DNA from: a phage
Sequence record: NC_135728.1
Direction: 5' to 3' (one strand)
DNA length: 64,000 nt
Positions 42,517 to 61,804 of this stretch are shown here, one piece after another. The notes beneath the pieces were generated by a model. That model had not been told where the DNA came from and made no database searches. It saw nothing but the letters and a program-made list of their open reading frames with translations. Both the position numbers and the translations under genes were made by a program. How positions within the stretch are numbered: position 1 is the first letter of the stretch; every line of letters starts with the position of its first letter.

Positions 42517-42936
42517 TTATAATGATTCGTATATTTCAAAAATCCGATTTGCCAGGTCGTTACGGTAGCGGAATTTTTCCTCACGTTTGATCATCAGATC
42601 TTTAAAGCCATATTCTTTAAGCACTTCATTAACTTTATGGCGGCATACCTTCATATTATCTTGTGCGTCACCAATAAACTTGTTGCTATGGTGCATGGCT
42701 TTAATTTCTTCTTCCAGGACCAGGGCAACTATGCGGACCGGATCAAGCTGATAGGCGGTAACATCAATGCGGCATTGTAAACGGCTTTTTACGTCTGCCA
42801 CCGGATATACTGCAACCTCTTCCCCGTCAACATTGACAATAATTAGTTTACCATCGATTTCGAATCCTTTCGCCGCCGGACCGTGACAAAAAGCGTTATC
42901 AAAGCTATATGCCGGATTATTAGATTTAATGTTCAT
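42517..42936 (-). CDS. hypothetical protein
   Basis: Track ORF; AGAGGT RBS. Confidence 0.5.
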   Translation of the reverse strand: MNIKSNNPAYSFDNAFCHGPAAKGFEIDGKLIIVNVDGEEVAVYPVADVKSRLQCRIDVTAYQLDPVRIVALVLEEEIKAMHHSNKFIGDAQDNMKVCRHKVNEVLKEYGFKDLMIKREEKFRYRNDLANRIFEIYESL

Positions 42937-43081
42937 GGTGTTTTTACCTCTTAGTTAATTTTCTTACAACTTCCCTTCAAAAAAGAATATAGCAAAACTG
43001 CCGATCCTTGTCAACCAAGGATAGCATAATTTTTATGTGATCAAGGGGCTTTATTGCCCCCTGATCGTGCAACTTGTTGTA

Positions 43082-43345
43082 TTATTTGTTACTCATCCAG
43101 TTTTCCCAGGCTGCCTGATAATCTGCCTCACTGCGGCGGATCTCTTCTTGCTCTTCAAGTCGGATCTCTTCTTCCAGGTACCCCAAGATATCGGCTTTCT
43201 TGGTCTGGCGTAACATCCAATCATCTTTTTTACGGGTAAAGATCTTATATGCTTTCTCGCAAACCTCTTTTTTGCTACCTTTTTGGACTTCAAGAACTTT
43301 GTAGGCCATGTACTGAACTAGTTTAAGCTGATCAAGACGTTTCAT
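43082..43345 (-). CDS. hypothetical protein
   Basis: Leader CCACACAAAGAGGTAAAC before ATG. Confidence 0.5.
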   Translation of the reverse strand: MKRLDQLKLVQYMAYKVLEVQKGSKKEVCEKAYKIFTRKKDDWMLRQTKKADILGYLEEEIRLEEQEEIRRSEADYQAAWENWMSNK

Positions 43346-43405
43346 GATGTTTACCTCTTTGTGTGGTTCTGATTAGTGGGCCTCCCGGCCCGTGTCATTA
43401 TCTTA

Positions 43406-43678
43406 TTACTTACGGCGGCAGAATTCAAGCGTTTTTAATTGATAATCTTCCTCAGCCTGGAGTACAACCGCCTCGATCATTTCGTTGGCATTGTTGAAGC
43501 CATACCCTTTAGCGAACTCGTCCGCACCACCTTCGTGATCATGTTCTGCGTTCATCGCTTCCACAAAATGGAATTCCAAATTGTTGAGGTAGGGGCTTGA
43601 TGTGCCGTCTTCTTTTTCGATGAGATCCCAAATAGCATTAAAACGTGATTCGACTTCTTGATTAATCCAGCTTGACAT
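43406..43678 (-). CDS. hypothetical acidic protein
   Basis: AGAGGAAAACAC before ATG. Confidence 0.5.
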   Translation of the reverse strand: MSSWINQEVESRFNAIWDLIEKEDGTSSPYLNNLEFHFVEAMNAEHDHEGGADEFAKGYGFNNANEMIEAVVLQAEEDYQLKTLEFCRRK

Positions 43679-43896
43679 AGTGTTTTCCTCTCTTCTGGTT
43701 GTTGTGTGGGCACCTTTGCCCCTTCAAGATAAATGTTACCCCACCCCCTGGCAGATGTCAACGGTTTTTATAGTTCTTATATGACAGGCAGGCCTGGTGA
43801 TTGTCTCCCCCTGTTCCCAAGTGCCGCCCGTTTAATAAGAATAGCAAAAGGGGCCGAACAAGTCAACCCCAAAATCAGTACCAAAACACTTTTTAT

Positions 43897-44208
43897 TTAT
43901 ACGGTCCGGTCATTGGCCTTTGTCCAGGACCTGGCGATCCGTTTCCCAGTCACCTGGAACGGAGACTGCATTGTGTGTAGTGAATCCAGCGTAAGGGAGG
44001 ACCGTTTACGGCGTATCTTCAGGATCGCCAATGTATTGTCCATCTCACGGCCAGGTCCTGGGCGGTATGGTGTGCCTCCAGCGTTAAGGTTGATGATCTC
44101 ATGTATTGAGATCCGGCGTTGTTTTGCTTCCGCATCTTTGAAGATAGCCAGTGGAGGCGCTATGCGTTGCCGATACCAATCTAAAACGGTTGGCGTAATA
44201 GCGATCAT
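43897..44208 (-). CDS. hypothetical protein
   Basis: AGGGGGTAAAAT before ATG. Confidence 0.5.
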   Translation of the reverse strand: MIAITPTVLDWYRQRIAPPLAIFKDAEAKQRRISIHEIINLNAGGTPYRPGPGREMDNTLAILKIRRKRSSLTLDSLHTMQSPFQVTGKRIARSWTKANDRTV

Positions 44209-44396
44209 ATTTTACCCCCTATGTAGTCCGGTCGGTTTTTCTCTGTCATGCGTTTAAGCAATTCTTGCATATGGCCTATAGCTTGTAGCGTGTCTTCTTC
44301 CAGGCTTGAATCTACATAATCAGGATCGTCTATCACCTTTTTATGATTATGATAACGCAGTACCGCCAATACCTTTCTAACTTGTTCAGTATTCAT
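44205..44396 (-). CDS. hypothetical protein
   Basis: ATGA-coupled to downstream gene. Confidence 0.45.
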   Translation of the reverse strand: MNTEQVRKVLAVLRYHNHKKVIDDPDYVDSSLEEDTLQAIGHMQELLKRMTEKNRPDYIGGKI

Positions 44397-44412
44397 TTTA
44401 CATCGCCCTTAC

Positions 44413-44703
44413 TTATTGTTGGCGGTTTACGTAAGCTTTACCGTTTACCGTCATCGGCAAATCTTCCAGGCCTGGATCTTCCTTAAGGTCGCGAGCAAGT
44501 TCACCGCACCGGATACCCTCGAATCCGTAGTACTCTGTTGTACCGTCATTAAAAGTTTTAGTGGCAAGGCATAAGCGATAAGTAACCCCGATTCGATTGA
44601 CGGCATGAATATCCGTTAGATTAACCTCTTTTGCCAGCTCATTAGCCATTGCAGGCGCACTAAGTCCAACAACCAGGGCAACCACTGCGATCATCTTTTT
44701 CAT
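44413..44703 (-). CDS. secreted / periplasmic small protein
   Basis: Signal-peptide-like MKKMIAVVALVVGLSAPAMA; AGAGGA RBS. Confidence 0.55.
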   Translation of the reverse strand: MKKMIAVVALVVGLSAPAMANELAKEVNLTDIHAVNRIGVTYRLCLATKTFNDGTTEYYGFEGIRCGELARDLKEDPGLEDLPMTVNGKAYVNRQQ

Positions 44704-44794
44704 TGTGTCTATCCTCTTTCTGCTACGTTTAAGGCGGCGGTAACCGCCTGTTTATGATTTGTTGGTTAATTTTCGGGTATCGGTATAAATTAAA

Positions 44795-45010
44795 CTATGC
44801 TGTACGCTCAACTATAACAACGGTTTGGGGGATCTCCCCTTCCACCACTAGTAAGGCCTTTTTCTGCGTGATAGATATCTTTACCCGTTGCAGCGTGGCG
44901 GTGAAGTCTTTCATTTCGTCACGCGGTGTTTTAGTGCAGTACCAGATCTCAGGCTTGCCGATCTGTAAGTTGCGTAAAAATTCTGTTTTGCCCGTTTTGT
45001 TAGTGATCAT
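44795..45010 (-). CDS. hypothetical protein
   Basis: GGTGAGG RBS. Confidence 0.45.
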   Translation of the reverse strand: MITNKTGKTEFLRNLQIGKPEIWYCTKTPRDEMKDFTATLQRVKISITQKKALLVVEGEIPQTVVIVERTA

Positions 45011-45019
45011 TTGCCAACC

Positions 45020-45124
45020 TCACCCGATACCGTTGGAAGACAAGATCATATTAGACATGGTTGCAATCAGGCCAATACCCAGGGCAATAATCAAGATCAC
45101 TGCATCGATTAATTTCTGTTTCAT
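45020..45124 (-). CDS. hydrophobic micro-protein, 34 aa
   Basis: MKQKLIDAVILIIALGIGLIATMSNMILSSNGIG; fits between flanking genes. Confidence 0.35.
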   Translation of the reverse strand: MKQKLIDAVILIIALGIGLIATMSNMILSSNGIG

Positions 45125-45201
45125 GGTGTTTATTCTCTTCTGTTAGTAACCTTATTCATGGGGCCGCTACCACAGCCCCAGGGTAAGGCGGCTATGTGCT
45201 T

Positions 45202-45447
45202 TTAGTGTTTCATTCCAACCATCGCGGCACGGATCGCCGTAGTGCTGTACTTGAAGCCGTCCGGGGTCTTATCTTGTCCGGTTAGCTCCAGAAAAAGCAT
45301 CATATCCCGCGCCGCATCATTACGATTAGCATTAGCGTTAATAAAGCCTTGGGCCAACCGGTACAATGACTCATCGTTATTAATCCAAAGGCTTACATTC
45401 CAATGAGTTTTGTTTTTGTAACCGTTATAACCTTTATTGCTTTTCAT
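45202..45447 (-). CDS. hypothetical protein
   Basis: AAGAAGAGGTAAAC leader. Confidence 0.5.
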   Translation of the reverse strand: MKSNKGYNGYKNKTHWNVSLWINNDESLYRLAQGFINANANRNDAARDMMLFLELTGQDKTPDGFKYSTTAIRAAMVGMKH

Positions 45448-45539
45448 GGTGTTTACCTCTTCTTTGTTCCGGGGTGGCGGATCATTCTACCACCTTATGT
45501 ATTATGCTTTGTTAGATGGTTGTTTGTTGTCAAACTATT

Positions 45540-45719
45540 TTAACGATAATCATCGTACGCTTTATTAACCTGGCGAATATAACATTCAAAAGCTAGATCA
45601 ATAGATTCATATTCACGGATATACTCACCATAGGAAACCACATACATTTCTATAGCTTCCTCATATGCGAGGAGAATAGAATCTAAGCCTACGATCTCGG
45701 TCTTTGCAATAATAGCCAT
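45540..45719 (-). CDS. hypothetical protein, 59 aa
   Basis: AAAGAGGATAAAAATC before ATG; just under track threshold. Confidence 0.4.
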   Translation of the reverse strand: MAIIAKTEIVGLDSILLAYEEAIEMYVVSYGEYIREYESIDLAFECYIRQVNKAYDDYR

Positions 45720-45794
45720 GATTTTTATCCTCTTTGTGGTTGGTGGGGCTTGTTGCTCCCTTTGATTTATATATTACAGTTTTATATGGTCATG

Positions 45795-46028
45795 TCAACT
45801 ATTTTCAAAAAATTTTTCTGCTGTGATATTCTTCCCGGTAGGGTTCGCTACTTTCAAAATTCTATCATGCACCGGACGCCCGAAAGAATAAGATCCGTAT
45901 ACAGTAAACCAATAATCACCGTCAGGCTGTACTATTACCGCCGCATATGGTACGCCTTTTTCGTTTTTGCTGACAAAATAGATCACATTGCCATTAATAG
46001 CCTCAGCGCGTTTAATTTGTTCCATCAT
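45795..46028 (-). CDS. hypothetical protein
   Basis: AGAGAGGTAAAT leader. Confidence 0.5.
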   Translation of the reverse strand: MMEQIKRAEAINGNVIYFVSKNEKGVPYAAVIVQPDGDYWFTVYGSYSFGRPVHDRILKVANPTGKNITAEKFFENS

Positions 46029-46082
46029 GATGATTTACCTCTCTTTATTTTCATAATTGGGGCCTTTTCGGCCCCGCCAGGT

Positions 46083-46367
46083 TTATTTATTGATAGCGTG
46101 CAGCGGGAAAGCTACGCCAGGTTGATAAATAACCTTTACAACCTCATCAGGACAAAAGAAGTTGCAGAACTCACCGCAGTAGGCCTCATCCTCTTTCAAC
46201 TCTTCATTAACATACTCAAAAAAGTAGTCGATGCTTGGATAATCCTGGCCGGGATTATAGTCAACCATCGTTAATAATAACTCTTGATCATTCCGTAGGA
46301 TATGCATACCCGCTTTTAAGTATTTTGCTTCCATTTCTACTACATCGCCAGCGGTAACAATAGCCAT
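46083..46367 (-). CDS. hypothetical acidic protein
   Basis: TAGGAG RBS. Confidence 0.5.
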   Translation of the reverse strand: MAIVTAGDVVEMEAKYLKAGMHILRNDQELLLTMVDYNPGQDYPSIDYFFEYVNEELKEDEAYCGEFCNFFCPDEVVKVIYQPGVAFPLHAINK

Positions 46368-46500
46368 GATTTTAACTCCTATCTATCTGGTCAATGATTG
46401 GGGGCCTCCCCCCTCGACAACTCTTATTATCCATATTGTCGGGAATGATGCAAGTACTTCTTTAAAAATTTTTTAAGCGCCTTAGGGCCGTTGTAACGTC

Positions 46501-46531
46501 AAAACAATAAAGGCTATGCGATTGCATAGCC
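46501..46531 (-). terminator. rho-independent terminator
   Basis: On minus strand GGCTATGC-AATC-GCATAGCC followed by TTTATTGTTTT. Confidence 0.5.
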
Positions 46532-46569
46532 TGCTAGTGTTTAGGTCGCTGTAGGCCCTGCCTGGGGCC

Positions 46570-46920
46570 TTATTTTGCATTCTTGCCTGTATTGCCGCCA
46601 CGGTACCAGCGTTTGCGGTGAAAATGGTAATAATCCCCCTCGGCATTAAACATCAGATGATTTTCAATAACCAGCTTACGAAGGTGGGCCGGATCTTGTT
46701 CCATTCTTGCCAGATTCCGGCGGCTGTTACGTAAACGGATAAATTCCATATTCAGGCCGTTGATTGCAGCATGGATGTTAAAGTAACCACCTTTGAGACG
46801 TTCACGCATGGCGTTAAGCTCAACACAATATACAGATTTCTCACAAATCAAGGTATTAGCTAGGGCGCGGACCTGGGCAAGGGGGTTAAGCTCATTAAGG
46901 TAATATAATTTAACTTTCAT
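46570..46920 (-). CDS. hypothetical protein
   Basis: AGGTGA RBS. Confidence 0.5.
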   Translation of the reverse strand: MKVKLYYLNELNPLAQVRALANTLICEKSVYCVELNAMRERLKGGYFNIHAAINGLNMEFIRLRNSRRNLARMEQDPAHLRKLVIENHLMFNAEGDYYHFHRKRWYRGGNTGKNAK

Positions 46921-46937
46921 AAAATCACCTGTTGAAA

Positions 46938-47246
46938 TTAGTTTGAGAAAACATCGTTCACAATAGCGATCACAATGCCGCTCACCTTGTCACGGTCAAC
47001 AATGCACAAATCACCATAGATCATGTGGTAGTCTGGATGATCTTTCACAGAATAGTCAATAAGTGTTTTCTTGTCATCCAGCTTCGTAACTTCCATTCTC
47101 ATAACGATATGAGAATCATCAAAGGCATTATTCCGAAAAGTCATAGCCTGACCGCCAGGGCACCCAGTGATCTCCACTTCCACACCATCTACGATCTGAC
47201 CATCAAAGAAATAAAGATTATTAGCCTGGATAAACATGTCTATCAC
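46938..47246 (-). CDS. hypothetical protein
   Basis: AAGGAG RBS. Confidence 0.5.
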   Translation of the reverse strand: MIDMFIQANNLYFFDGQIVDGVEVEITGCPGGQAMTFRNNAFDDSHIVMRMEVTKLDDKKTLIDYSVKDHPDYHMIYGDLCIVDRDKVSGIVIAIVNDVFSN

Positions 47247-47281
47247 TCCTTGTTAACTGCGTGGTATTTTAACAGGGTTTA

Positions 47282-47311
47282 AATTTACTTTATTGATGGC
47301 CCTGGAGTCAA
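47282..47311 (-). promoter_or_regulatory. conserved promoter-hairpin element, copy 1 (TTGACT-18-TAAATT)
   Basis: One of three near-identical 48-bp elements; hairpin GATGGCC/GGCCATC spans the -35 and spacer. Confidence 0.5.
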
Positions 47312-47330
47312 GGCCATCTAAAAATAAATT

Positions 47331-47531
47331 TTACAGGCCTACAATCTCTTTGATTCGTTTAACCGCTGCCTCAGCGCCTTGGGGGTAAAAATTATGGTAA
47401 CCAATCACGCGAGTGATACTAATCGCCGTTTGATGATCTTCATAGTCGCCCTTGAAGATTTCTTGACCGTCAATCAGCACGGCAATTTTTTCTTCTTTTT
47501 TGAAGTTAATAACGCGGATATTGTTGCTCAT
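47331..47531 (-). CDS. hypothetical protein
   Basis: AAGGAGA RBS. Confidence 0.5.
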   Translation of the reverse strand: MSNNIRVINFKKEEKIAVLIDGQEIFKGDYEDHQTAISITRVIGYHNFYPQGAEAAVKRIKEIVGL

Positions 47532-47632
47532 TTTGTTTCTCCTTTCTGGTTTTTGTGGTGGTGGGGATTAGCTCCCCCCGTTGATTGTTATTATCCACAT
47601 TCCGGACCGGATTGCAACACCCCGGAAGAAAA

Positions 47633-47647
47633 TTTTTTTTTTTTTTT
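47633..47647. repeat. T15 homopolymer tract (A15 on the coding strand)
   Basis: Fifteen consecutive T; flanked by DnaA-box-like TTATCCACA at about 47589 and hairpin GGCCCCC-ATGATC-GGGGGCC. Confidence 0.8.
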
Positions 47648-47678
47648 AAAGATAGGCCCCCATGATCGGGGGCCGTTA

Positions 47679-47798
47679 TCAGTTACTTACAGCGATAAAA
47701 TACATCCCTACGCCTAACAATATTTCAAGGGCGATGATCTCAAGCCATACCATAGCACGGCGCGCCTTATCGGTGCGGGGCTTATCCTTGGTTGTCAT
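47679..47798 (-). CDS. small membrane protein, 39 aa
   Basis: GGAGGGAAGGGGGAG RBS; MTTKDKPRTDKARRAMVWLEIIALEILLGVGMYFIAVSN. Confidence 0.35.
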   Translation of the reverse strand: MTTKDKPRTDKARRAMVWLEIIALEILLGVGMYFIAVSN

Positions 47799-47818
47799 CG
47801 TCTCCCCCTTCCCTCCTG

Positions 47819-48040: not shown

Positions 48041-48389
48041 ATTTTCTATTCCTCTCAAATAGGCGATCCGCCTCAGTTAAACATATCTCATGGGCTTGAT
48101 CTCTGGTTTTAGCCTCATCAAAAACCTGTTGTGCCAGGCTGCAGCGTAGGGAGACTGGAAGATCGCTATAATAGGCGTTGACAAACGTTTGAGCGTCGTA
48201 CAGGTCTGAAAATACTTTACCCTTTCTATTATTCCCCTTGTCAACAATTGCAAGGATAACCAATACAATAGTTGCGACTACCCCCAGGAAAATAGATATA
48301 ATAAACCATAAAAAGGCGGATCTTCCCATCTTGCCAGCGATCCAGGCGTTAAACAAGGCAACCAATACAGCCAAAATAATAAATTCCAT
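48018..48389 (-). CDS. membrane protein (two TM helices)
   Basis: Start MEFIILAVLVALF after AGAGGT; second TM FLWFIISIFLGVVATIVLVILAIV. Confidence 0.5.
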   Translation of the reverse strand: MEFIILAVLVALFNAWIAGKMGRSAFLWFIISIFLGVVATIVLVILAIVDKGNNRKGKVFSDLYDAQTFVNAYYSDLPVSLRCSLAQQVFDEAKTRDQAHEICLTEADRLFERNRKYVGQPFK

Positions 48390-48453
48390 TCTATGTACCT
48401 CTTTTACAGTTCTGATTAACAATAAGGCGGCAAATATGCCGCCTGTTACCTGA

Positions 48454-48834
48454 TTAAAAATTATCGCCGTAAATCTTTCCGCTTTCTACCCATACCACCA
48501 CGCGAGGCATACTATCCCACACGTCTTGTTTTAGATTGAGCGCGTGCAATTCTTCGGTGGTGCTCATACCGGGCACGGGCTGATTGTATACTGCAAAACG
48601 ACCGCCTGCATAATCATAGGCCAGGGTTAAATCACACTGGATCATCTTTTTGATCATGGCATTAAGCATGGCGTTAGCCGCATATTGATCACGTTTTAAA
48701 GGCAACTCTTTGATTAGTTTGCGATAGTTTTCGATATGGTCGCACACTGTTTCACGTGGAAGATCTTTCATATCCTCGCGAAAGGTAACCAGGTTAAACA
48801 TAACGGTGTCAATGGCTTTAGTGGTGCTTTTCAT
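48454..48834 (-). CDS. hypothetical protein
   Basis: Leader CCACACAAAACAAAGAGGAAAAC. Confidence 0.5.
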   Translation of the reverse strand: MKSTTKAIDTVMFNLVTFREDMKDLPRETVCDHIENYRKLIKELPLKRDQYAANAMLNAMIKKMIQCDLTLAYDYAGGRFAVYNQPVPGMSTTEELHALNLKQDVWDSMPRVVVWVESGKIYGDNF

Positions 48835-48922
48835 GATGTTTTCCTCTTTGTTTTGTGTGGGGCAAACGTCTTGCCCCTTGAGTTTTAATATAGCAGGTTT
48901 TTAGGTTATTGCAACACTTTAT

Positions 48923-49546
48923 TTATGAAAAAGTCATCTCGCCATATTCATCCACATCAAACCGCCAATCATTGGCCTCGATAAGGCCGATCAGGTTTTC
49001 GGTAGTAAATTGTTCAAGATAAGCTTGCTCCAGGTCTACGTAAACCTTGCGGGATAGCTCCCGTACCGTCTCGGTGATCAGCTCTTCCAGCTCTTCAACT
49101 TTGTCCTCTTGCTTGGTGGTCAGGTCTAGCCAATTAGTATCGATGCACCCTCCTATTGTGTTTTCGTGGTGATAATGGCTAAACGGGATACGTTCAACAC
49201 TGGCTGATAGTTCGCCATCGTGCATTGTGCCGAACAAGTGACGAATTGATCGGAACTTGGTCAGGGCCTTTACTTTACGCAAGAATTTTTCTAAATCCAC
49301 GTTTTCCGCACTGATTGACGCGCCGTCACCCTGGCACCAAAAGCCTGACCAATGTACTTCGGTATCTTCAAGGCCATACTCTGGAAAAACATATTCTTTA
49401 TAGTATTCAATTACACTTTCTGCAAAAAAGTTATCCCCGCTGTGTTCTTCTCTTTCGCGTACCATTTCAATGGCTTTTTCTTTTTGTTCGTCGGTCAGCA
49501 CGTCGAAAGATAAATTGTAACCTGTGGTAATGTTAACGGTGGTCAT
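48923..49546 (-). CDS. hypothetical acidic protein (207 aa)
   Basis: CAGGAGAAAATAT leader; no confident motif. Confidence 0.5.
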   Translation of the reverse strand: MTTVNITTGYNLSFDVLTDEQKEKAIEMVREREEHSGDNFFAESVIEYYKEYVFPEYGLEDTEVHWSGFWCQGDGASISAENVDLEKFLRKVKALTKFRSIRHLFGTMHDGELSASVERIPFSHYHHENTIGGCIDTNWLDLTTKQEDKVEELEELITETVRELSRKVYVDLEQAYLEQFTTENLIGLIEANDWRFDVDEYGEMTFS

Positions 49547-49621
49547 GATATTTTCTCCTGTTTTCTTTGTTAGTGGCGGGAAGTTTTCCCGCCTATGTTT
49601 TTTAATTATACTTATTGAGAT

Positions 49622-49882
49622 TTACTTGTCAACACTATTTTTTAAATTATTGTGGCGCAAAATGTTTAAAATCTTCTCAACGTCATCAACACGGCGGCAA
49701 TTTTTAAACGCTACCAATTGCCCCATGATTTTAATCACTGGGCGGCCTTGCCAGTGCCCCTGAAGAAAGCGCGCCTTGACTTTATCGGTGGAACTATCAC
49801 GCCACCAAATAGCCTTGTTGTTGCAGTAGTAAAAATTATTCAGGATAACATCAACTTTATCAAAATTTTTTAATTTACGCAT
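49622..49882 (-). CDS. hypothetical protein
   Basis: AAAGGAGTAAACGCC leader. Confidence 0.5.
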   Translation of the reverse strand: MRKLKNFDKVDVILNNFYYCNNKAIWWRDSSTDKVKARFLQGHWQGRPVIKIMGQLVAFKNCRRVDDVEKILNILRHNNLKNSVDK

Positions 49883-49914
49883 GGCGTTTACTCCTTTCTC
49901 TCTTTGATGTGGTT

Positions 49915-49942
49915 AGTATAGCTAACCTGTTGACGATGTCAA
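49915..49942 (-). promoter_or_regulatory. sigma70-like promoter TTGACA-16-TATACT
   Basis: Read on minus strand upstream of gene 49622-49882. Confidence 0.5.
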
Positions 49943-51051: not shown

Positions 51052-51393
51052 TTACTCGTTTTCTTCCAGCTCCGCAAGCTCTTCTTTTGCTTCTTCCAAC
51101 TCTGTCTGCAATTCCTGATATTCTTCATCGTCCTCAATATCCAGGCTGTCGATGTAGTCGCTAAATCCGCAGCGGTAAGCGATAGGATCTAGCTCCTTGA
51201 GGATACGCGACGGAAGAAAAGAAATGTTTCCGATCATAATTTCGCCGTAGATCTCGTCCAACCATTCATCATAGTTTTCGTCGTACTTGTCCTCGTCGAT
51301 TTCAAAGTTATCGATCTTATTCTCAAGGTCTGCGATCTGTTTTTTCAGGGCAGCGATCTGAATAGCTTTTTCTGCGGCGGTCATAGTAGTCAT
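51052..51393 (-). CDS. acidic coiled-coil protein
   Basis: AAAGGAGAAAAACACC leader. Confidence 0.5.
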   Translation of the reverse strand: MTTMTAAEKAIQIAALKKQIADLENKIDNFEIDEDKYDENYDEWLDEIYGEIMIGNISFLPSRILKELDPIAYRCGFSDYIDSLDIEDDEEYQELQTELEEAKEELAELEENE

Positions 51394-51472
51394 GGTGTTT
51401 TTCTCCTTTTGTGTGTTCTGGGAAGTTTTCCCGTTTATGTGTTTAGTATACTGATCTAAGTTAGCTTGTCAA

Positions 51473-51624: not shown

Positions 51625-51654
51625 AGTTTACTTTATTGATGGCCCTGGTGTCAA
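51625..51654 (-). promoter_or_regulatory. conserved promoter-hairpin element, copy 3 (TTGACA-18-TAAACT)
   Basis: Near-identical to copies 1 and 2. Confidence 0.5.
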
Positions 51655-51672
51655 GGCCATCTAAAAATAAAC

Positions 51673-52068
51673 TTAGTAAGTTTTCAGTACTTTCCCGTCC
51701 AGTCTGTCAAGCTGGATCTCGATAGCTGCAGAAAACCTATTATAAACCACATCGCCCATGGAGTCCAGCCAATCTATGACGTTATACACCTGCTCTTTAT
51801 TCTTGCAAGTCCGGATCCGTTTCATTACGTAAGACGGATCAATATTAGTGCTCTCGTTGTTGTGGTCATGCGCCTGGCCTGCTGCATTAGTTATAGATTT
51901 TACAACCACCTGAAAGGGCTTTAAGGTGCCTTTTGCGTTCATCTCACGCGCTTTTGCGGCGCGGTTGTTATATGTTACACAACGGCGGCAAATGTTGACC
52001 AAATGCATATCAATAATTTTTTCATCGTTTGCCAGTTCGTTCATGATGCGGCGTACGTTCTTATTCAT
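51673..52068 (-). CDS. hypothetical protein
   Basis: AACACAAAGGAAAAAGATC leader preceded by GGCGGGAA-ACAT-TCCCGCC hairpin. Confidence 0.5.
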   Translation of the reverse strand: MNKNVRRIMNELANDEKIIDMHLVNICRRCVTYNNRAAKAREMNAKGTLKPFQVVVKSITNAAGQAHDHNNESTNIDPSYVMKRIRTCKNKEQVYNVIDWLDSMGDVVYNRFSAAIEIQLDRLDGKVLKTY

Positions 52069-52150
52069 GATCTTTTTCCTTTGTGTTGGCGGGAAACATT
52101 CCCGCCTTTTGTGCCTAGTTTACTTGAATTTTGCAGCGTGTCAATGATTT

Positions 52151-52549
52151 TTATTCGTGGGCGCATGTTACAATGTGCTTTTTATAGCCTAGATGATCAG
52201 CAAGTGCCGACAAAAACTCTTCTTCATAGATCCAGCCGTTGGCAGTGATCCCCATAGCATTTAATGCGCTCTCAAGTGCTGCGTTAGCTTTATCATAACC
52301 GTATCCGCTGGCCTTGCCGCCAGTATAACCGTACTTATTGTTCTTGCTGTCGTGCATCCAAAAGACGCAATAATGAGTATTACCGCTGGAGGCGGCATAA
52401 TACCGGATCTCAGCTACTTCGTGCAAATTATTGTCATCGTCCAGGCCCACCAGATTATAAGCCTTATAAAATCCACGATCACGGCGGCAGTTCTTGACAT
52501 CAGAAAAAGAAAAGTCCGCATTATCAAAATTAAAGGTGGTGGTTTTCAT
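52151..52549 (-). CDS. hypothetical protein
   Basis: AAGAGGATAAAATC leader. Confidence 0.5.
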   Translation of the reverse strand: MKTTTFNFDNADFSFSDVKNCRRDRGFYKAYNLVGLDDDNNLHEVAEIRYYAASSGNTHYCVFWMHDSKNNKYGYTGGKASGYGYDKANAALESALNAMGITANGWIYEEEFLSALADHLGYKKHIVTCAHE

Positions 52550-52613
52550 GATTTTATCCTCTTAGTGTCTTTTGTGCTTTTAGTGTATTTGGTGTCGTAC
52601 TATATGTCAATAC

Positions 52614-52811
52614 TTATTTTTTATTAAACCAGTGGTTGATCTGGCCTTTTGTCAGGGCGCAACGATTAAGCTGTTGCCGGGTATAGCTCTGACCACGACG
52701 GAATTTATAAAGGCCTTGCCCGTTGTTGATGGTTACATCCACCCGGCAAATCACTTGATCCGTGACCACCTGGCGAGTGTTGCGACGTACTTTGATTCCG
52801 TAGGCGTTCAT
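52614..52811 (-). CDS. hypothetical protein
   Basis: AAAGAGGATAAAAAATC leader. Confidence 0.5.
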   Translation of the reverse strand: MNAYGIKVRRNTRQVVTDQVICRVDVTINNGQGLYKFRRGQSYTRQQLNRCALTKGQINHWFNKK

Positions 52812-52899
52812 GATTTTTTATCCTCTTTGTTAATTAGTGCGGTGTTGTTCACCTTGCGATAATAAGAATAACAAGAACTGCCCGAGCTGTCAACCATTA

Positions 52900-55013: not shown

Positions 55014-55022
55014 ATATCATAC

Positions 55023-55214: not shown

Positions 55215-55277
55215 AATACATCGCTCTCTTTTAGTTTATGCGTATACTATACACTGCAGTTTTCAGATGTCAACCTC

Positions 55278-55669: not shown

Positions 55670-55722
55670 AGTGCTCCCTCTCTCAATCGTTGTGGTGACT
55701 ATACCATCTCAAAAGTCAGCTG

Positions 55723-56596: not shown

Positions 56597-56664
56597 CTTA
56601 GTTCTCCGGGTTCAACAGGTGGTGGTGCTACAGGAAGATCATAAAACATAGCTATCACAGTCTC

Positions 56665-56862
56665 TTACACAGGAATTGCTTCAAACAGGCCGTTATCTAT
56701 ACCGTCCTTCAGATAGAGATTATATTCTATGTCGGTATCTGTATAAAAGGCAGCATCCAGCATTCTATCTGTGAGTCCATCCATTGGGTGGAGAAACCAC
56801 CACCCACGCCAGTCAAAGTAACAGCCTGGTGCATCTTCTCTTACACGGATTCGATAAATCAT
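56665..56862 (-). CDS. hypothetical protein
   Basis: AGGAGG RBS. Confidence 0.45.
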   Translation of the reverse strand: MIYRIRVREDAPGCYFDWRGWWFLHPMDGLTDRMLDAAFYTDTDIEYNLYLKDGIDNGLFEAIPV

Positions 56863-56957
56863 GGGCAGTGGCCTCCTGTTAGTTATACATCCCAGTTTTC
56901 TTCGTTCATCACGTCCTCCAGTCTATGAAGTTATAATTGCACACCTTTCAACCTGTG

Positions 56958-57374
56958 TCAACAGAAAACTTCAACAAACTCTTCCACAGTTTTAATGTCG
57001 TGGGAAAAAGGTTTACGGCTATAACGGGCAATAGCACTATCAACCACCGCCCGGTACTCCAAATCTTCAGAATATTTCATGAAGCATTGCAGTGTTTCTG
57101 GACAGATAGCTAGATAGCTCCACCACCCTTCATCAGATTGATAGTCAAAGCCCATGCTCTCCAACCATGAAGCATATACTCCAGCACCCTCAAGCCAGTG
57201 GGTATTTTCATCCAGAAACTTGTTAACAGACATGTGAGCTTCTAAGCACTTGTCCAGCTCTTTTCCGTTAACCAGCCACGCACTGACTGTGGCACATCCA
57301 AGGTCTACAGATTGAGTTGACAGGTTGTATTGGTCATAGTTCTCAGGTTTAACAATGATATCTTCTAATGTCAT
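56958..57374 (-). CDS. hypothetical acidic protein
   Basis: AAGGAGA RBS. Confidence 0.5.
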   Translation of the reverse strand: MTLEDIIVKPENYDQYNLSTQSVDLGCATVSAWLVNGKELDKCLEAHMSVNKFLDENTHWLEGAGVYASWLESMGFDYQSDEGWWSYLAICPETLQCFMKYSEDLEYRAVVDSAIARYSRKPFSHDIKTVEEFVEVFC

Positions 57375-57436
57375 TTTTCAGATCTCCTTATACAAAAATG
57401 CCCCACCCTTTCGGGCAGGGCTATGTTAACTAGATG

Positions 57437-58663
57437 TTAGAAGGGGATGTCATCATCAAAGGCGTACTGTGCTGGATTCTGATCCATCGGGTCGTCTTCC
57501 CCATCATTTACAGGAGGAGCGTCTACAGTGTTTTGCTGTGGAGCTGCTTCCTGTTTGGCAGCCTGAGGTTCTTGATGGTCAGTTGACCCAGCACCGTTCT
57601 TGATCCAATCGTACAACGGCTCAGCCAGATTAGTCAACACATCTTTTGCTTCTGCAGTAATTGCCGCTGCAAAATCATCAACTTTCGTTTTCTTGTCAAT
57701 ACGGCGACAAGCGTTCAACACCGCATTACCGACACTGGCACCTACTTCATCTTCAGTTCGGTTGGTGGCTTGAGCATACTCTTTCTTAAGCTCAATGGTG
57801 ACTACGTGCAGTGCTTTAGCCACACCTAGTGGGTCGTCTACCTTAAACCCGCGATCCAGGATGATTTGCAACGCATTGATGCTATGCCCAGTCTCCACAC
57901 CAATAGGGTCGTAAGAGGATTTACGCTTGCCACCAGAGCCTTGAGTGCCGTTCTCTGCCTTAGGTGGGTAGGCTTTGAAACCACTGATAATGTTTCCGGT
58001 GTCTTTGTCAACAATGGCTGCAACACGACCACCTACCACCAGGTCTTTAAGCTGCTCATCAGTGACAACCATAGCACCTTCGCCAATCTTGTGGTCATTA
58101 ACAGTAACCACGTTGCCAACAATCTGAGCCACATCGCCATAGATGCGTAAAACGTCCTGATTGGCATTCTGCTGAGGTTTCTGCTTCTGACCTTGTGATT
58201 GTGCACCTTGTTGCTGTTTTTGCTGCTGAGTCGCTGCTGGAGCCTCTCCTGCACCCAGCTTAACCATCTTAGCCAGTGAGCCTTTGTAGTAGGTCTTACC
58301 GTTATGCTCGTTTGCCTTCAAAGGAATATTTACGATCCATCCTGTCGTTACGGTTTCCCACTTGTCATCAATCTTAACAGAGACAGAGTCTTGATGACCC
58401 GGTTTAAGCAGCTTATCACCCATGCTGATCCAGACTTCTTCACCACCTTGAAGCAGGTTATCAGAGGAATCCAGTTCAGAAATCAGTAAAGAGATGGTGT
58501 GGCTGGACTCAATTTTCTTACCTTGCCACACGGTGGTTTTAATACCTGTTGCAGGATCAGCCCCTTTAATAGGTTTGATGCTAACACGTTTGATCATACC
58601 GTGAGCCAGTAAAACAGTTTCACGCGGATTCATCGGGTTAGCAAATTGTTGAATAACGCTCAT
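57437..58663 (-). CDS. multi-domain protein with SSB-type acidic C-terminal tip (putative ssDNA-binding protein)
   Basis: C-terminus ...AFDDDIPF is the same hexapeptide as the E. coli SSB tip; Gln-rich low-complexity linker QQQKQQQGAQSQGQKQKPQQ; AAGGAGA RBS. Confidence 0.55.
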   Translation of the reverse strand: MSVIQQFANPMNPRETVLLAHGMIKRVSIKPIKGADPATGIKTTVWQGKKIESSHTISLLISELDSSDNLLQGGEEVWISMGDKLLKPGHQDSVSVKIDDKWETVTTGWIVNIPLKANEHNGKTYYKGSLAKMVKLGAGEAPAATQQQKQQQGAQSQGQKQKPQQNANQDVLRIYGDVAQIVGNVVTVNDHKIGEGAMVVTDEQLKDLVVGGRVAAIVDKDTGNIISGFKAYPPKAENGTQGSGGKRKSSYDPIGVETGHSINALQIILDRGFKVDDPLGVAKALHVVTIELKKEYAQATNRTEDEVGASVGNAVLNACRRIDKKTKVDDFAAAITAEAKDVLTNLAEPLYDWIKNGAGSTDHQEPQAAKQEAAPQQNTVDAPPVNDGEDDPMDQNPAQYAFDDDIPF

Positions 58664-59028
58664 TATTTATCTCCTTGTTCTTCGTTAGTGTTTGCCGTGT
58701 GTGCAAACCCTGCTTGAATTAATTTGTCCTGAACTTGAGCCAATAGGCCCATTGCAAAACTTGTGGTCCCAGAGAGGGCCATTAGCATATCTCGTTGTTG
58801 AGCTACCCAACCTAAGGCATAGTCCAAACGACGATATTTTTCTTCTTCGCGCAGAGCCTGAAATAATTGTTCAGCCTCCGGTTGTTGTGTGAGCTCCTGA
58901 AGTCTTCCCATGAAAGAAGAAAGCACTAGCAAAAGAGACACTTGATCTTTACTTAACCCTAAGAAAAATTCTTGAGGTTGTTCTTGCTCGTTCATCGCAA
59001 CCGACTCTTGATCGTTCATTTGTTCCAT
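58663..59028 (-). CDS. hypothetical protein
   Basis: GGAGA RBS; overlaps downstream start by 1 nt. Confidence 0.5.
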   Translation of the reverse strand: MEQMNDQESVAMNEQEQPQEFFLGLSKDQVSLLLVLSSFMGRLQELTQQPEAEQLFQALREEEKYRRLDYALGWVAQQRDMLMALSGTTSFAMGLLAQVQDKLIQAGFAHTANTNEEQGDK

Positions 59029-59111
59029 TATGGAATCTCCGATTTTATTTGAACAACATAGAAGGAGACACTATTTTAGCATCCCCTTCTGTAAATTACA
59101 ATATGTATTTG

Positions 59112-59357
59112 TTAGCCAATCACTTCAAAAGTTCCCCAATTCCCGTCCAGCAGGCAGGTGATCGGATCCCCATCGTCGTCAAAGATTTCAAAGTTCTCAG
59201 CATCCAGGATGTGGCCCTCGAACACAATACTTTCGTCGCCACCACCAGAAATAACAGCGTATTCCTTACCTTGAGTCAAGTTTTGACATCCTTTGCCACC
59301 AAAACCTACTTCAACACAACGTACTTTCTGTCCTGCGCGAGCAACTGCTTCAGTCAT
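59112..59357 (-). CDS. hypothetical protein
   Basis: AGGAGA RBS. Confidence 0.5.
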   Translation of the reverse strand: MTEAVARAGQKVRCVEVGFGGKGCQNLTQGKEYAVISGGGDESIVFEGHILDAENFEIFDDDGDPITCLLDGNWGTFEVIG

Positions 59358-59374
59358 CTTAAGGTCTCCTGATA

Positions 59375-59677
59375 TTAATCGTCAAGTTCAAAATAGATTT
59401 TAACAGCTTCATCAAAGATTGGAATCTCGATGTTGTTGATAAGCTGCCAAACTACCATATCTTTACCTGGGTCTGGGAGAATGTCAACCTTTCTCCATGC
59501 GCTGTATACCCAGTTCGGACCGCCTTCTGCACTAACTGGCAGATTTTCACCAGCTTCTTGTAGATACTTATACAGCAAAAGATATTCTGGATACTCTAGA
59601 ACACTGTCCTCTGTGGTATATAGCAGTTCACGGTATACTTTTAAGAACCCTGCTGGGGTGATGTTTTCAGTCTTCAT
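59375..59677 (-). CDS. hypothetical protein
   Basis: Start MKTENIT after AGGAGAAG (track start 59695 has a weak RBS). Confidence 0.45.
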   Translation of the reverse strand: MKTENITPAGFLKVYRELLYTTEDSVLEYPEYLLLYKYLQEAGENLPVSAEGGPNWVYSAWRKVDILPDPGKDMVVWQLINNIEIPIFDEAVKIYFELDD

Positions 59678-60056
59678 TTGCTGCTTCTCCTGCATTCATC
59701 AGATCTGCCATAGCGTCGCCCACGAAGAGAACAACCCCATCGTTCACCGCGTCAGCATCATCTTTGTTGACGTTGCTGAATTTAGGACACACAGCAATAA
59801 TCATATAGACACCGTTACCCATCTGAACTGTCCGTGTGGTGCACATCATGGCTGTATTTGTACCTTCTTTGAAGGCGAAGCCTTGAAGACGCTCCTCTAG
59901 AGTGTTACCGGTAGATTTCAGAAGCGCCAGCTCGTCCAAGGCATAGATGATATCTCCGGAAGTTAGTGTTGCCTTGCCATCAGATACCATAATCACTCCA
60001 TCAGCACCATCAAGCTTAGAGGCTTCAAAGATATTGATATCCCAAATATTTTTCAT
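59667..60056 (-). CDS. hypothetical protein
   Basis: ATG after GAGGAAG. Confidence 0.5.
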   Translation of the reverse strand: MKNIWDINIFEASKLDGADGVIMVSDGKATLTSGDIIYALDELALLKSTGNTLEERLQGFAFKEGTNTAMMCTTRTVQMGNGVYMIIAVCPKFSNVNKDDADAVNDGVVLFVGDAMADLMNAGEAANED

Positions 60057-60328
60057 CACGCTTCCTCATCATCTAAGTAATCATCAAGAGAGGTGAAGAT
60101 TTCACCGAAGTATTCTAAGATTTCTAGCTCACGTGTGGTGCAGCAAACATAATCGCCTTGGTCGTCCTTAATAGTGGCCTCTTTACCCAGAATATCTACT
60201 TCAAGTTCATCGTTCAACAGGACGGCCCCTGTGTAAACTTTGTCGGCTGTGCAGTCCCGAAAAGCAGAGTCTTTCTCCAGATAGTCTGGCTTAACCTTGG
60301 CTTTAATTCGTTGATATTGTTTGGTCAT
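60056..60328 (-). CDS. small acidic protein, paralog of 60392-60646
   Basis: Start MTKQYQ after AAAGGGGA; shares KP.Y...D.AF.DCT with the neighbour. Confidence 0.5.
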   Translation of the reverse strand: MTKQYQRIKAKVKPDYLEKDSAFRDCTADKVYTGAVLLNDELEVDILGKEATIKDDQGDYVCCTTRELEILEYFGEIFTSLDDYLDDEEA

Positions 60329-60359
60329 TGCTGTGGTCCCCTTTCGTTTTGATAGGGCC

Positions 60360-60388
60360 ATTATATTAGGCCCTATCACTGTTGTCAA
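60360..60388 (-). promoter_or_regulatory. sigma70-like promoter TTGACA-17-TATAAT with hairpin in spacer
   Basis: Read on minus strand; ATAGGGCC/GGCCCTAT palindrome overlaps the spacer. Confidence 0.4.
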
Positions 60389-60391
60389 GTA

Positions 60392-60646
60392 TTAATGTTC
60401 AGGTTTTACAAAAACTACCTCATTAACAGTGCACCAGACAGAGTCTCCTTCATCATCTTTAAAGGTAAGGCACTGTGCTGAGTTTTCCAGCTCATCAATC
60501 TCTTCTTGTGATAAAGGGGCCCCTTCTTCCAGAAGGGCTTTTACCAGAGGGTTCTCACAAAACTCTGCTTCATAGATTGCACCGATTGTGCAATCTTTAA
60601 AAGCTCGGTCATTTGCAACGCATTCTGGCTTCAAAGTAATTTTCAT
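60392..60646 (-). CDS. small acidic protein, paralog of 60056-60328
   Basis: AAGGAGA RBS. Confidence 0.5.
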   Translation of the reverse strand: MKITLKPECVANDRAFKDCTIGAIYEAEFCENPLVKALLEEGAPLSQEEIDELENSAQCLTFKDDEGDSVWCTVNEVVFVKPEH

Positions 60647-60722
60647 CTTGGCAGTCTCCTTAGTTATTTAAAAATCAACGCTTTGTTTGTGTGAAGCATC
60701 TTATATCTAATCTTACTTCTTG

Positions 60723-61094
60723 TCAATGGCTATTTTCAATCAGCCACACAGGGTCTAGGTAAATTTGTTGGCGTGTTGCCCAATGACAAACTTCATTGTA
60801 CATCTGAATCTCTTTGTCCGTCAGTTCACGAATAGGCTCATCTATGCCCTCATTTTTGTGGTAATCCCAGTCGGCATCGATTTCCCACAACCATGACTTG
60901 TTGTCACCACGCTTACGCACACAAAAGTCACCTGGACGGCCTGCCAATGCATTTAAGAACTCGTTCTCCGCTCGCTCCTGAAGAATACTAAGGAGCAAAA
61001 CGTTGGAGCATGACCGTAAAATATGCTTCAGCTCACAATCATCAATCTCAACTTCAATACGTTGTTTGACTGTGTGGGTACCTTTTACTAACAT
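60723..61094 (-). CDS. hypothetical protein
   Basis: Start MLVKGTH after AGAGGAGGTAGG. Confidence 0.5.
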   Translation of the reverse strand: MLVKGTHTVKQRIEVEIDDCELKHILRSCSNVLLLSILQERAENEFLNALAGRPGDFCVRKRGDNKSWLWEIDADWDYHKNEGIDEPIRELTDKEIQMYNEVCHWATRQQIYLDPVWLIENSH

Positions 61095-61104
61095 CCTACC
61101 TCCT

Positions 61105-61299
61105 CTAAACGAACTCTGCAAGAGTTGTGTTGTTCACTGCACCGCAGTAAATGGAGTATCCCAGCCCATTAGAGTGCAGAAACCACGGCGTGCCGAAATT
61201 ATCTTTCACGTAGACATCGCCGTTGTTTGTAAAGGGCCAATATTCTTCACCAAGGGTAAAATACCTATTCATACCTTCAGCAAGATACTTTACTTTCAT
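61105..61299 (-). CDS. hypothetical protein
   Basis: ATGA-coupled; GAAGAGGACC leader. Confidence 0.45.
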   Translation of the reverse strand: MKVKYLAEGMNRYFTLGEEYWPFTNNGDVYVKDNFGTPWFLHSNGLGYSIYCGAVNNTTLAEFV

Positions 61300-61523
61300 A
61301 GGTCCTCTTCAACAACTACAAACTTGGCAAGCAAAGTGGTTCCGTAGATATGATACTCACCGTTTGCGAGGTGAGAGATATACCAGGCAACCCCTTCCTC
61401 GTCTTTAATCATTTTGTTTGCACGAGCTTTATCGTAATAAACCTCGTAGGTCTTTCCTTCTTTAAAGAATGACAGGTCTGTCATCTTTTCTTCTACAAAG
61501 GTAGCTTTAACCAAAGTCGTCAT
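61296..61523 (-). CDS. hypothetical protein
   Basis: AAGGAGA RBS. Confidence 0.45.
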   Translation of the reverse strand: MTTLVKATFVEEKMTDLSFFKEGKTYEVYYDKARANKMIKDEEGVAWYISHLANGEYHIYGTTLLAKFVVVEEDL

Positions 61524-61804
61524 TGATCGGTCTCCTTCTTGTTAAGTCTGAATACTGCAATAATAGTATTCCCAAGGTGCAGTGTCAAGTCATTTCCAAG
61601 GTACCACAGCATCCCACGGTCATCTTTAATGAAAGGGTAACAATCTGGTGCCTTCCAGACATTGTACACTTTCCCAACCTGAAAGAAATCAGGCCCTGTT
61701 GGTATTTTGGTGCCAGGCCACACTTGAGATACCTGAACACACTCCACCTGCATAATAACAGGAATGGTCATGGATGTAAATGTTTTTGTTGGCTCTACTA
61801 CCAT
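61520..61804 (-). CDS. hypothetical protein
   Basis: Start MVVEPTK after AAGAGGAGA (track start 61894 would overlap the polymerase exon). Confidence 0.45.
   Translation of the reverse strand: MVVEPTKTFTSMTIPVIMQVECVQVSQVWPGTKIPTGPDFFQVGKVYNVWKAPDCYPFIKDDRGMLWYLGNDLTLHLGNTIIAVFRLNKKETDQ

Follow-up and report, generated by a model that had tools for sequence, protein, structure and literature searches.

Probable promoter-early stem-loop (PeSL)-like cassettes in front of small leftward genes of an rV5-like coliphage

What are the short GC-rich hairpins that stand in front of many small leftward genes of an rV5-like coliphage, and would they act on DNA or on RNA? We addressed these questions in a 64,000-nucleotide stretch of sequence record NC_135728.1 (the window; all coordinates are window positions unless another phage is named, and the coding strand of the leftward genes is the minus strand), which carries such genes in region 42517-61804. 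The window comes from a Vequintavirus (rV5-like myovirus), and its top match is Escherichia phage Murica at 98.6% identity over the entire query (megablast of 42517-52000; 302 phage records). An earlier sequence-only reading had reported about 55 small leftward ORFans here, which is roughly correct: we count 52 leftward open reading frames (ORFs) with plausible ribosome sites, the Murica counterpart of the region has 52 leftward coding sequences (CDS; Murica151-202) that are almost all annotated "hypothetical protein", and all ten of the leftward products that were sampled fall only in PHROGs of unknown function and in no informative Pfam family (one domain of unknown function and one sub-threshold hit). 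A tRNA scan found no tRNA. We argue below that the hairpins are parts of cassettes whose architecture is very probably that of the PeSL elements of T4-type phages. That 42.5-52.9 kb is the early, hyperplastic arm of the phage, with small genes of unknown function carried on compact, semi-repeated expression cassettes, is a view that we hold with middling confidence, and the overall reading of these units as mobile PeSL-like cassettes for early-gene expression with a 5' mRNA-stabilising stem-loop seems to us evenly balanced between right and wrong.

Hairpins were called where a stem of at least 5 bp with at least 4 G-C pairs lay within -62 to -16 of a start codon. In the first half of the region (42517-52850) such a hairpin precedes 14 of the 29 genes, whereas 300 dinucleotide shuffles average 1.6 and never exceed 6. 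The second half (53900-61804), with 23 tightly packed and often overlapping genes, has four hairpins in the same interval, and the three that were inspected are a U-tailed terminator (57400-57421), a long terminator-like stem (59060-59090) and, at 60350-60378, a stem around a -10 hexamer. A stereotyped ribosome site, (A)GAGG(T/A)AAAcAYC-ATG, is present at 16 of the 29 first-half genes and at 1 of the 23 second-half genes; an ACAAAG-type motif precedes about 11 genes altogether, and CACAAAGAGG with at most one mismatch occurs 14 times in the window where 4.5 occurrences are expected. The hairpin-leader pattern is real and non-random, and it covers about a quarter to a third of the leftward genes. 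The stereotyped leader of hairpin, CACAAAG and Shine-Dalgarno (SD) sequence that the sequence-only reading described is thus well above chance, and in all of its five examples (before 43345, 45447, 48834, 49546 and 52068) a GC hairpin does precede an A/C-rich leader, SD and ATG, but it had over-counted: hairpins precede 14 of 52 rather than "most" leftward genes, all of them in 42.5-52.9 kb, and 53.9-61.8 kb is essentially devoid of the leader.

The 14 stem-loops begin with G and end with C, have stems of 5-9 bp and predicted energies of -5 to -16 kcal/mol, and include at least eight unrelated stem sequences in this single genome. The sequence 3' of the stem is A/C-rich and contains no U tract in 13 of the 14, the exception being 48425-48444, which is the predicted terminator t184 of rV5 and the only one of the 14 with a GC hairpin and an immediate U tract. 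Intrinsic termination by E. coli RNA polymerase requires a U tract. The sequence therefore argues against efficient intrinsic termination by these stem-loops on the coding strand, as had been concluded earlier from their tails. An Rfam scan of 42.0-62.5 kb (E <= 1) gave no match at the hairpins or leaders; a group I intron (below) was the sole match above its gathering score.

Do the hairpins lie inside one long transcript, or at the beginnings of many? A consensus scan of 42.4-62.3 kb found 67 sigma-70-like sites, compared with 39 ± 7 in shuffles, and nearly all of the best ones lie between genes on the coding strand. At least 14 coding-strand sites with 9-12 of 12 matches lie in the 10.4 kb between 42.5 and 52.9 kb, and T/A-rich stretches are found upstream of the -35 hexamers. 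Nine of the scanned promoters coincide with independent predictions for rV5 (P164, P168, P174, P185, P186, P192, P194, P195 and P195A in Table S4 of PMC3606486), and that paper also places terminators t164, t177, t181 and t184 in the same arm; the leader hairpins go unmentioned in it. There are in total ~18 promoters for the 29 genes of this 10.4 kb segment and only ~6 U-tailed terminators. When each hairpin was paired with its best upstream promoter, the distance from the end of the -10 hexamer to the first paired base was 8-13 nt for 10 of the 14, and 19-35 nt separate the hairpin end from the ATG. If transcription starts ~7 nt past the -10 hexamer, an assumption that makes all start sites predicted rather than mapped, the stem-loop would begin at +3 to +8, would leave 2-7 unpaired 5' nt, and would be the first structure of a predicted 42-52 nt 5' untranslated region (UTR). 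A literature search turned up no transcriptome and no start-site map for Vequintavirus or Phapecoctavirus.

These measurements bear directly on the proposal of the sequence-only reading that the hairpins could be RNase III-type processing sites by which a polycistronic early transcript is segmented. Monocistronic mRNAs would be cut in this way in the early region of T7. The hairpins do resemble the T7 early sites R1-R5 in their inter-gene position and in having GC-rich stems without a U tract. A substrate of RNase III, however, must offer ~11-22 bp of double-stranded RNA, or about one to two turns of helix, often with an internal loop. The R sites of T7 form long, irregular hairpins and belong to one transcript that begins at three upstream promoters; the hairpins studied here have stems of only 5-9 bp, the minimum free energy (MFE) folds of ten modelled leaders contain no duplex longer than this, nearly every unit has its own promoter, and no Rfam family matches. 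Because ten hairpins lie at the predicted 5' ends of their own transcripts and promoters are dense (at least 14 strong ones in 10.4 kb), the region does not appear to be one long transcript in need of segmentation. RNase III sites were rejected on stem length and promoter density, and we regard them as scarcely credible.

The cassettes with promoters are all on the minus strand and are read as follows: an A/T-rich stretch, a strong sigma-70 promoter, 8-13 nt, a 5-9 bp stem-loop with G first and then C, a 19-35 nt leader with almost no U, and almost no G outside the SD (ACA/ACAAAG-rich), and the (A)GAGG(T/A)AAAcAYC-ATG ribosome site. The promoter of gene 43345 (cassette 43343..43428) is weak (TTGAAT-17-TAAGAT) and is followed by hairpin 43378-43391 (GGGCCGGGAGGCCC), leader ACTAATCAGAACCACACAAAGAGGTAAACATC and ATG; that of gene 43678 (43676..43761) is TTGACA-17-TAACAT (P168), with hairpin 43708-43721 (GGGCAAAGGTGCCC), a CA-rich leader and ATG. 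Gene 45447 (45445..45533) has TTGACA and an uncertain -10, hairpin 45473-45494 (GGTGGTAGAATGATCCGCCACC), leader CCGGAACAAAGAAGAGGTAAACACC and ATG, and gene 45719 (45717..45798) has TTGACA-16-TAATAT (P174), hairpin 45745-45760 (with one mismatch), leader ACCAACCACAAAGAGGATAAAAATC and ATG. A TTGCAT-type -35 with GATAAT, hairpin 46400-46412 (GGGGGAGGCCCCC), leader and ATG serve gene 46367 (46365..46454); TTGCAA-16-GATAAT, hairpin 47563-47577 (GGGGAGCTAATCCCC), the T-free leader ACCACCACAAAAACCAGAAAGGAGAAACAAA and ATG serve gene 47531 (47529..47617); and TTGCAA-16-TATATT, hairpin 48859-48877 (GGGGCAAGACGTTTGCCCC), leader ACACAAAACAAAGAGGAAAACATC and ATG serve gene 48834 (48832..48914). The cassette of gene 49546 (49544..49632) consists of TTGACA-16-TATAAT (P185), hairpin 49575-49593 (GGCGGGAAAACTTCCCGCC), leader ACTAACAAAGAAAACAGGAGAAAATATC and ATG, that of gene 51393 (51391..51472) of TTGACA-16-TATACT (P192), hairpin 51419-51433 (CGGGAAAACTTCCCA), the T-free leader GAACACACAAAAGGAGAAAAACACC and ATG, and that of gene 52068 (52066..52144) of TTGACA-16-TAAACT (P194), hairpin 52088-52106 (GGCGGGAATGTTTCCCGCC), leader AACACAAAGGAAAAAGATC and ATG.

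Such an arrangement is known from the T4-type phages phi1, RB49, PST and nt-1 as the PeSL (Arbiol et al. 2010, PMC2839356; Comeau et al. 2014, PMC4122927). A PeSL spans ~100 bp, in which a strong sigma-70-like early promoter, A/T-rich on its upstream side, is combined with a stem-loop and with the SD and ATG of the gene that follows; formation of encapsidated mini-circles counts among PeSL traits, the stem-loop is often poly-G followed by poly-C and takes one of five positions, including one downstream of the -10, and PeSLs cluster upstream of ORFans in hyperplastic regions, where recombination between them deletes, inserts and swaps genes (PMC2839356). The window has the same parts in the same places: strong promoters (the at least 14 sites of 9-12 matches, T/A-rich upstream), G-run/C-run stem-loops, and SD and start codon at the 3' end, in many copies before small genes of unknown function in a variable, hyperplastic region. 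Several positional classes of stem-loop, as in PeSLs, are all seen in the window, including stems around the -35 (4 copies), around the -10 (60350-60378) and in the spacer (plus strand 23801). Indel junctions also fall in the cassettes, and recombination between cassettes that leads to insertions, deletions and replacements is suggested by comparison of genomes (below). There are differences as well. The lineages are Vequintavirinae and (for phage phiWec190, below) Stephanstirmvirinae instead of T4-type; the dominant class in the window has its stem-loop after the predicted start, in its own mRNA, whereas in phi1 and RB49 the stem-loop is mostly between -35 and -10 or over the -10; the window adds to the PeSL plan a stereotyped U-poor ACA/ACAAAG leader and a fixed SD-ATG spacer; and its stem-loops are without a U tract, which makes the terminator role claimed for PeSLs doubtful here. 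Our literature search found no paper that links PeSLs to rV5-like phages.

The same modules are found in the phapecoctavirus phiWec190 (Stephanstirmvirinae), where 19 of them lie in 13 kb with an architecture more regular than that of the window. Thirteen of the 19 have a TTGACA-type promoter whose -10 ends 9-14 nt before the stem (9-11 nt in 12 of the 13), and there are few stem types, some of them common to vequintaviruses, including the type of hairpin 45473-45494. Annotation has been confused by these elements in recurrent ways that the cassettes account for. The annotated ATGs of phiWec190 at 11703, 16232, 18005 and 21679 of its locus fall in a leader-hairpin loop (..GTAGGGCGGCA-ATG-GTGCCGC..), and these CDS starts are almost certainly mis-called, the likely real start in each case being downstream of the A/C-rich leader. 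The label "terminator" is attached in HdK5 to some leader hairpins (9572-9590 and 3203-3217 of its locus) and in Murica to some inverted repeats that enclose the -35 hexamer (16772-16816 and 20159-20203), none with a coding-strand U tract. 

The other positional classes deserve description. A 48-nt promoter cassette, gTTTATTTTTA-GATGGCC-TTGACAcCAG-GGCCATC-AATAAAGTAAACT, is repeated on the minus strand at 51625..51673, 51004-51052 and 47282-47330, with a variant at 50683-50715 as the fourth copy; its inverted repeat GATGGCC..GGCCATC (7-10 bp) surrounds the -35 hexamer and could be an operator or the PeSL class "overlapping -35". At 60350-60378 (minus) the sequence is TGATAGGGCC-TAATATAAT-GGCCCTATCA, with the -10 hexamer in the loop. 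On the plus strand GCCACAAGGATGTGGC occupies the spacer between TTGACA and ATATTAT at 23801-23816, a similar GGCACAAAGGATGTGCC is at 31168-31184, and the rightward promoters P107 and P144 also precede stem-loops (17206-17228 and 34152-34172). With these additional promoter-associated inverted repeats, promoter-plus-stem-loop units extend genome-wide, beyond the leftward arm.

Is it the sequence of the hairpins or their pairing that is retained? The homologous arm was compared hairpin by hairpin in ten related vequintaviruses (the L001-L011 set, in which L001 is Murica, L006 is HdK5 and L010 is an IMG/VR contig), and across the ten the stems are kept while sequences turn over. A compensatory series from G-C through G·U to A-U is seen at 46400-46412, where GGGGG/CCCCC is replaced by GGGGG/CCTCC (G·U) in three phages and by GGAGG/CCTCC in two (the changed pair is GC 5, GU 2 and AU 2 in RNAalifold). 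The inner stem of 52088-52106 is swapped in L002 for the different, still paired GGCGGTTGAtacTCAGCCGCC; an A-to-G change yields a G·U pair in 48859-48877 in four phages; and 45745-45760 is a perfect GGGGC/GCCCC stem in most relatives compared with one mismatch in the window. The stem of 43378-43391 is kept in the orthologues and only its loop varies. Loops are flipped to the reverse complement in four hairpins, the hairpin of 44732-44749 is inverted in L009, and that of 46059-46075 has in L004 a flipped loop and a stem lengthened to 9 bp, so that loop sequence and loop orientation seem to be of little consequence. Where only one partner of a pair has changed, RNA of the coding strand folds more stably, by 3-6 kcal/mol, than its antisense counterpart. 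Internal wobbles on the coding strand are ~10 G·U against ~2 A·C in a hand-filtered subset, a count that is suggestive and not rigorous; the subset was used in place of an automatic count (raw values 25 and 23) into which unrelated loci and spurious stem extensions had crept. We rate the evidence for selected pairing as modest, because the events are few and not all independent, and the wobble asymmetry may, to a similarly modest degree, speak for an RNA that acts on the coding strand and against a site in duplex DNA or an antisense role. A MAFFT alignment of the 12 paralogous modules was not structure-consistent, so no covariance model was built; IMG/VR, queried with the 207-aa product of gene 49546, gave only two close loci; and an IMG/VR pattern scan for GGCGGGAANNNTTCCCGCC, a generic GC palindrome, was uninformative, with 115 unrelated contigs.

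Could the palindromes nevertheless be DNA-level elements, either operators through which a phage-encoded dimeric regulator shuts early promoters off, or cruciform or recombination signals for gene shuffling? The near-identical 19-bp palindrome GGCGGGAAnnnTTCCCGCC, shared by 49593 and 52106 and present in shortened form at 51433 (51419-51433), the few types that repeat in phiWec190, and the predicted hairpin location at about +3 to +22, a classic operator position, all agree with such an idea, as do the four other promoters with an inverted repeat around the -35 and the loop flips and recombination junctions at cassettes. It is difficult to reconcile, however, with the presence of at least eight unrelated stems in one genome, with substitutions that preserve pairing and not sequence, with half-changed pairs that are mostly coding-strand G·U as expected for RNA and not for duplex DNA, and with hairpin-leader modules that have no promoter, and we consider it quite unlikely. 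The strand preference bears in the same way on the idea that the hairpins are antisense terminators for rightward transcription, in which the hairpins, read on the plus strand, run into T-rich sequence complementary to the A-rich first transcribed bases. A lax scan of the plus strand picks out 6 of the 14 (such as GGCGGGAAACATTCCCGCC TTTTGTGCC at 52088), and annotators of HdK5 and Murica called some of these elements "terminator", but 8 of the 14 have no usable plus-strand T tract (GTGTCATT, CTTCAAG, CTCGACAAC, CCGTTGATT and others), the wobbles favour the coding strand, and the ORF list and promoter scan show no rightward genes and no strong rightward promoters in the hairpin-bearing region. 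Antisense termination is thus very unlikely.

The segments between hairpin and ATG have a composition of their own. They are 53% A, 18% C, 17% G (mostly the SD) and 11.8% T, compared with 24.6% T on the coding strand of the region (binomial p = 1.7e-10), and several are entirely T-free; A/C sequence of this kind is incapable of self-pairing. In ten modelled 5' UTRs the stem-loop is present in every predicted fold, and the ribosome site is mostly open, with a mean unpaired probability of 0.43-0.83. C/A-rich (ACA-motif) translation enhancers reportedly lie upstream of the SD in GcvB-target mRNAs of Salmonella and E. coli. The phage leaders resemble them in having ACA/CA runs just 5' of the SD in an unstructured leader, but differ in that they match the R1 segment of GcvB no better than random sequence does: the mean duplex energy with R1 is -12.9 kcal/mol, compared with -13.1 kcal/mol for random 41-mers of the region, and targeting of the leaders by GcvB was rejected on this value.

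How might a cassette of this kind work? We propose tentatively, by analogy, that the transcribed 5' stem-loop stabilises or insulates the mRNA, while the U-poor, ACA-rich leader would leave the ribosome site accessible, with few RNase E sites and efficient translation. Host RNA polymerase would start ~7 nt past the -10, so that the stem-loop would be the first structure of the mRNA after ~2-7 unpaired 5' nt. Lying near the 5' end, it would limit 5'-end-dependent decay (RppH, RNase E), and by locking up the variable 5' end it would prevent this from pairing with the ribosome site; the U-poor A/C leader would be unable to fold, would offer few RNase E sites and may act as an ACA-type translation enhancer. 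The stem-loop at the start of T7 gene 10 (phi10) transcripts also prolongs mRNA life. In E. coli, 5'-terminal stem-loops of the ompA and papA 5' UTRs stabilise mRNAs (Emory 1992, Bouvet and Belasco 1992 and Arnold 1998, as reviewed in PMC3997798). Like these, the phage cassettes have a short stable hairpin near the 5' end, an unstructured leader and a strong ribosome site; they differ from the ompA type in that their 5' ends are predicted only and that 2-7 unpaired nt (if the start lies 7 nt past the -10) are perhaps too many for full protection, the ompA-type benchmark being ~4 or fewer. The earlier suggestion that the hairpins are mRNA-stabilising structures is plausible as a role at the RNA level, and its functional part stays a proposal. 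A stem-loop inside the mRNA raises a testable question: are early messages protected by 5' hairpins and U-free leaders while host mRNA is degraded?

Several points weigh against such a stabilising function. The start sites on which it depends are predictions. RppH could still act on 2-7 unpaired 5' nt, and RNase E could still engage; the E. coli RppH requires at least 2-3 unpaired nt. The B. subtilis enzyme is reported to require at least 2-3 unpaired 5' nt (review PMC3997798), and simple stem-loops hinder RNase E scanning poorly (PMC11194081). Covariation is thin, with few independent events among close relatives, and a shared origin of duplicated cassettes could account for part of the constancy in promoter-hairpin spacing. 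In three or four hairpin-leader modules the promoter is missing. Elsewhere in the genome the stem-loop encloses the -35 or -10 or is in the spacer, and so lies outside its own transcript, placements that would speak for an action on read-through RNA or on the DNA itself. Finally, the PeSL authors measured a terminator-like activity for one stem-loop (PMC2839356).

These last points lead to a serious rival, that the hairpin is a PeSL-type attenuator or 3'-end barrier on read-through RNA, which would stop or attenuate polymerase or block 3'-to-5' exonucleases and so meter the gene array. It was proposed by the PeSL authors, in whose assay one stem-loop cut lacZ expression as much as rrnB T1 did (PMC2839356). 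With ~6 U-tailed terminators for 29 genes and ~18 promoters, read-through RNA must be common; three or four promoter-less hairpins lie directly after a stop codon, and in the classes with the stem-loop over the -35 or -10 or in the spacer only read-through RNA contains it. Against this, 13 of the 14 hairpins are without the U tract, an efficient terminator 2-7 nt past its own start would abort the transcripts of that very promoter, and a read-through function has no need for the tight 8-13 nt spacing to the -10 (9-11 nt in 12 of 13 phiWec190 cases). On balance we consider the attenuator unlikely. Alternatively, stem-loop and ACA-rich leader could form a shared mobile "phage mRNA tag" of Vequintavirinae and Stephanstirmvirinae that is recognised by a phage or host factor and is not a passive structure; the few near-identical stems ~10 nt past the -10 would then mark early transcripts for survival or translation while the phage destroys host mRNA. 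T4 Srd stimulates RNase E, and rV5 encodes a homologue of it. We view a tag of this sort as a long shot.

Whatever the stem-loop does, are the cassettes places at which genes are gained and lost? Gene content of the arm varies among the ten relatives. L010 lacks window positions 51052-51625 (a 573-bp deletion). In the window this segment has a copy of the 48-nt promoter cassette on either side; L010 has only one, chimeric copy there, as recombination between the two copies would explain. L004 and L005 lack gene 45202-45447, whose promoter and hairpin lead in these phages into the following gene, with the junction inside the stereotyped leader; L007 has a different hairpin-leader module at the position of this junction. 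Of 78 alignment breakpoints, 50 fall in the intergenic 22% of the sequence and most others are at most 14 nt from a start or stop codon, a bias that is partly expected, since only whole-gene changes survive. The mutual resemblance of the cassettes would make them substrates for homologous recombination by which whole genes are added, deleted or swapped, as described for T4-type PeSLs. These concrete cases of gene gain and loss, together with the architecture, carry the PeSL-like "plug-and-play" cassette beyond T4-type phages into two more groups of large coliphages that find use in therapy and biocontrol, and the modules are compact natural promoter/5' UTR parts for E. coli.

Not all units of the arm are complete. 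Three intercistronic modules on the minus strand have no credible promoter: 44701..44749 (hairpin 44732-44749, leader and ATG of gene 44703); 45122..45180 (hairpin 45159-45180, whose two sense-strand G·U pairs give -16.2 kcal/mol in sense and -10.1 kcal/mol in antisense, and ATG of gene 45124); and 46026..46075 (hairpin 46059-46075, GGGGCCGAAAAGGCCCC, and ATG of gene 46028). A possible fourth is 48387..48444 (-), in which hairpin 48425-48444 with its T-rich tail (t184) is followed by the SD and ATG of gene 48389; it is probably a true terminator and not a leader hairpin. Conversely, some minus-strand genes have the promoter but no hairpin: gene 42936 (42934..43014; P164) has the stereotyped ribosome site, gene 49882 (49880..49942; P186) an A/C-rich leader and the stereotyped ribosome site, gene 52549 (52547..52610; P195) the leader GCACAAAAGACACTAAGAGGATAAAATC, and gene 52811 (52809..52893; P195A) the leader ..TAATTAACAAAGAGGATAAAAAATC with a hairpin of at most 4 bp.

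A few of the early genes have some hint of annotation: the small gene at 50102-50299 (minus) is labelled T7 gp1.1-like in Murica and A51.2, gene 42517-42936 has a Rel homology domain according to the Murica annotation, and ~55723-56181 encodes a macro-domain protein according to the annotations of Murica and HMD-6. Between the cassette-rich arm and the tightly packed arm lies ~1 kb (~52900-53900) without a convincing ORF (Murica179 is doubtful), which holds short repeated units ('tactcgatctgtttttc', 'ggattttc(t)g(g)aaa' and 'aatgataat(c/g)at') and GC-rich blocks and may be the "non-coding" box on the rV5 map. The intron noted above is a 276-bp group I intron at 62208-62483 (minus) inside the DNA polymerase gene, with no homing-endonuclease ORF visible in it; this segment is precisely missing from Murica, where the polymerase gene runs uninterrupted, and the Rfam Intron_gpI match spans 62258-62493 with 64.7 bits (gathering score 50) and E = 1.3e-14.

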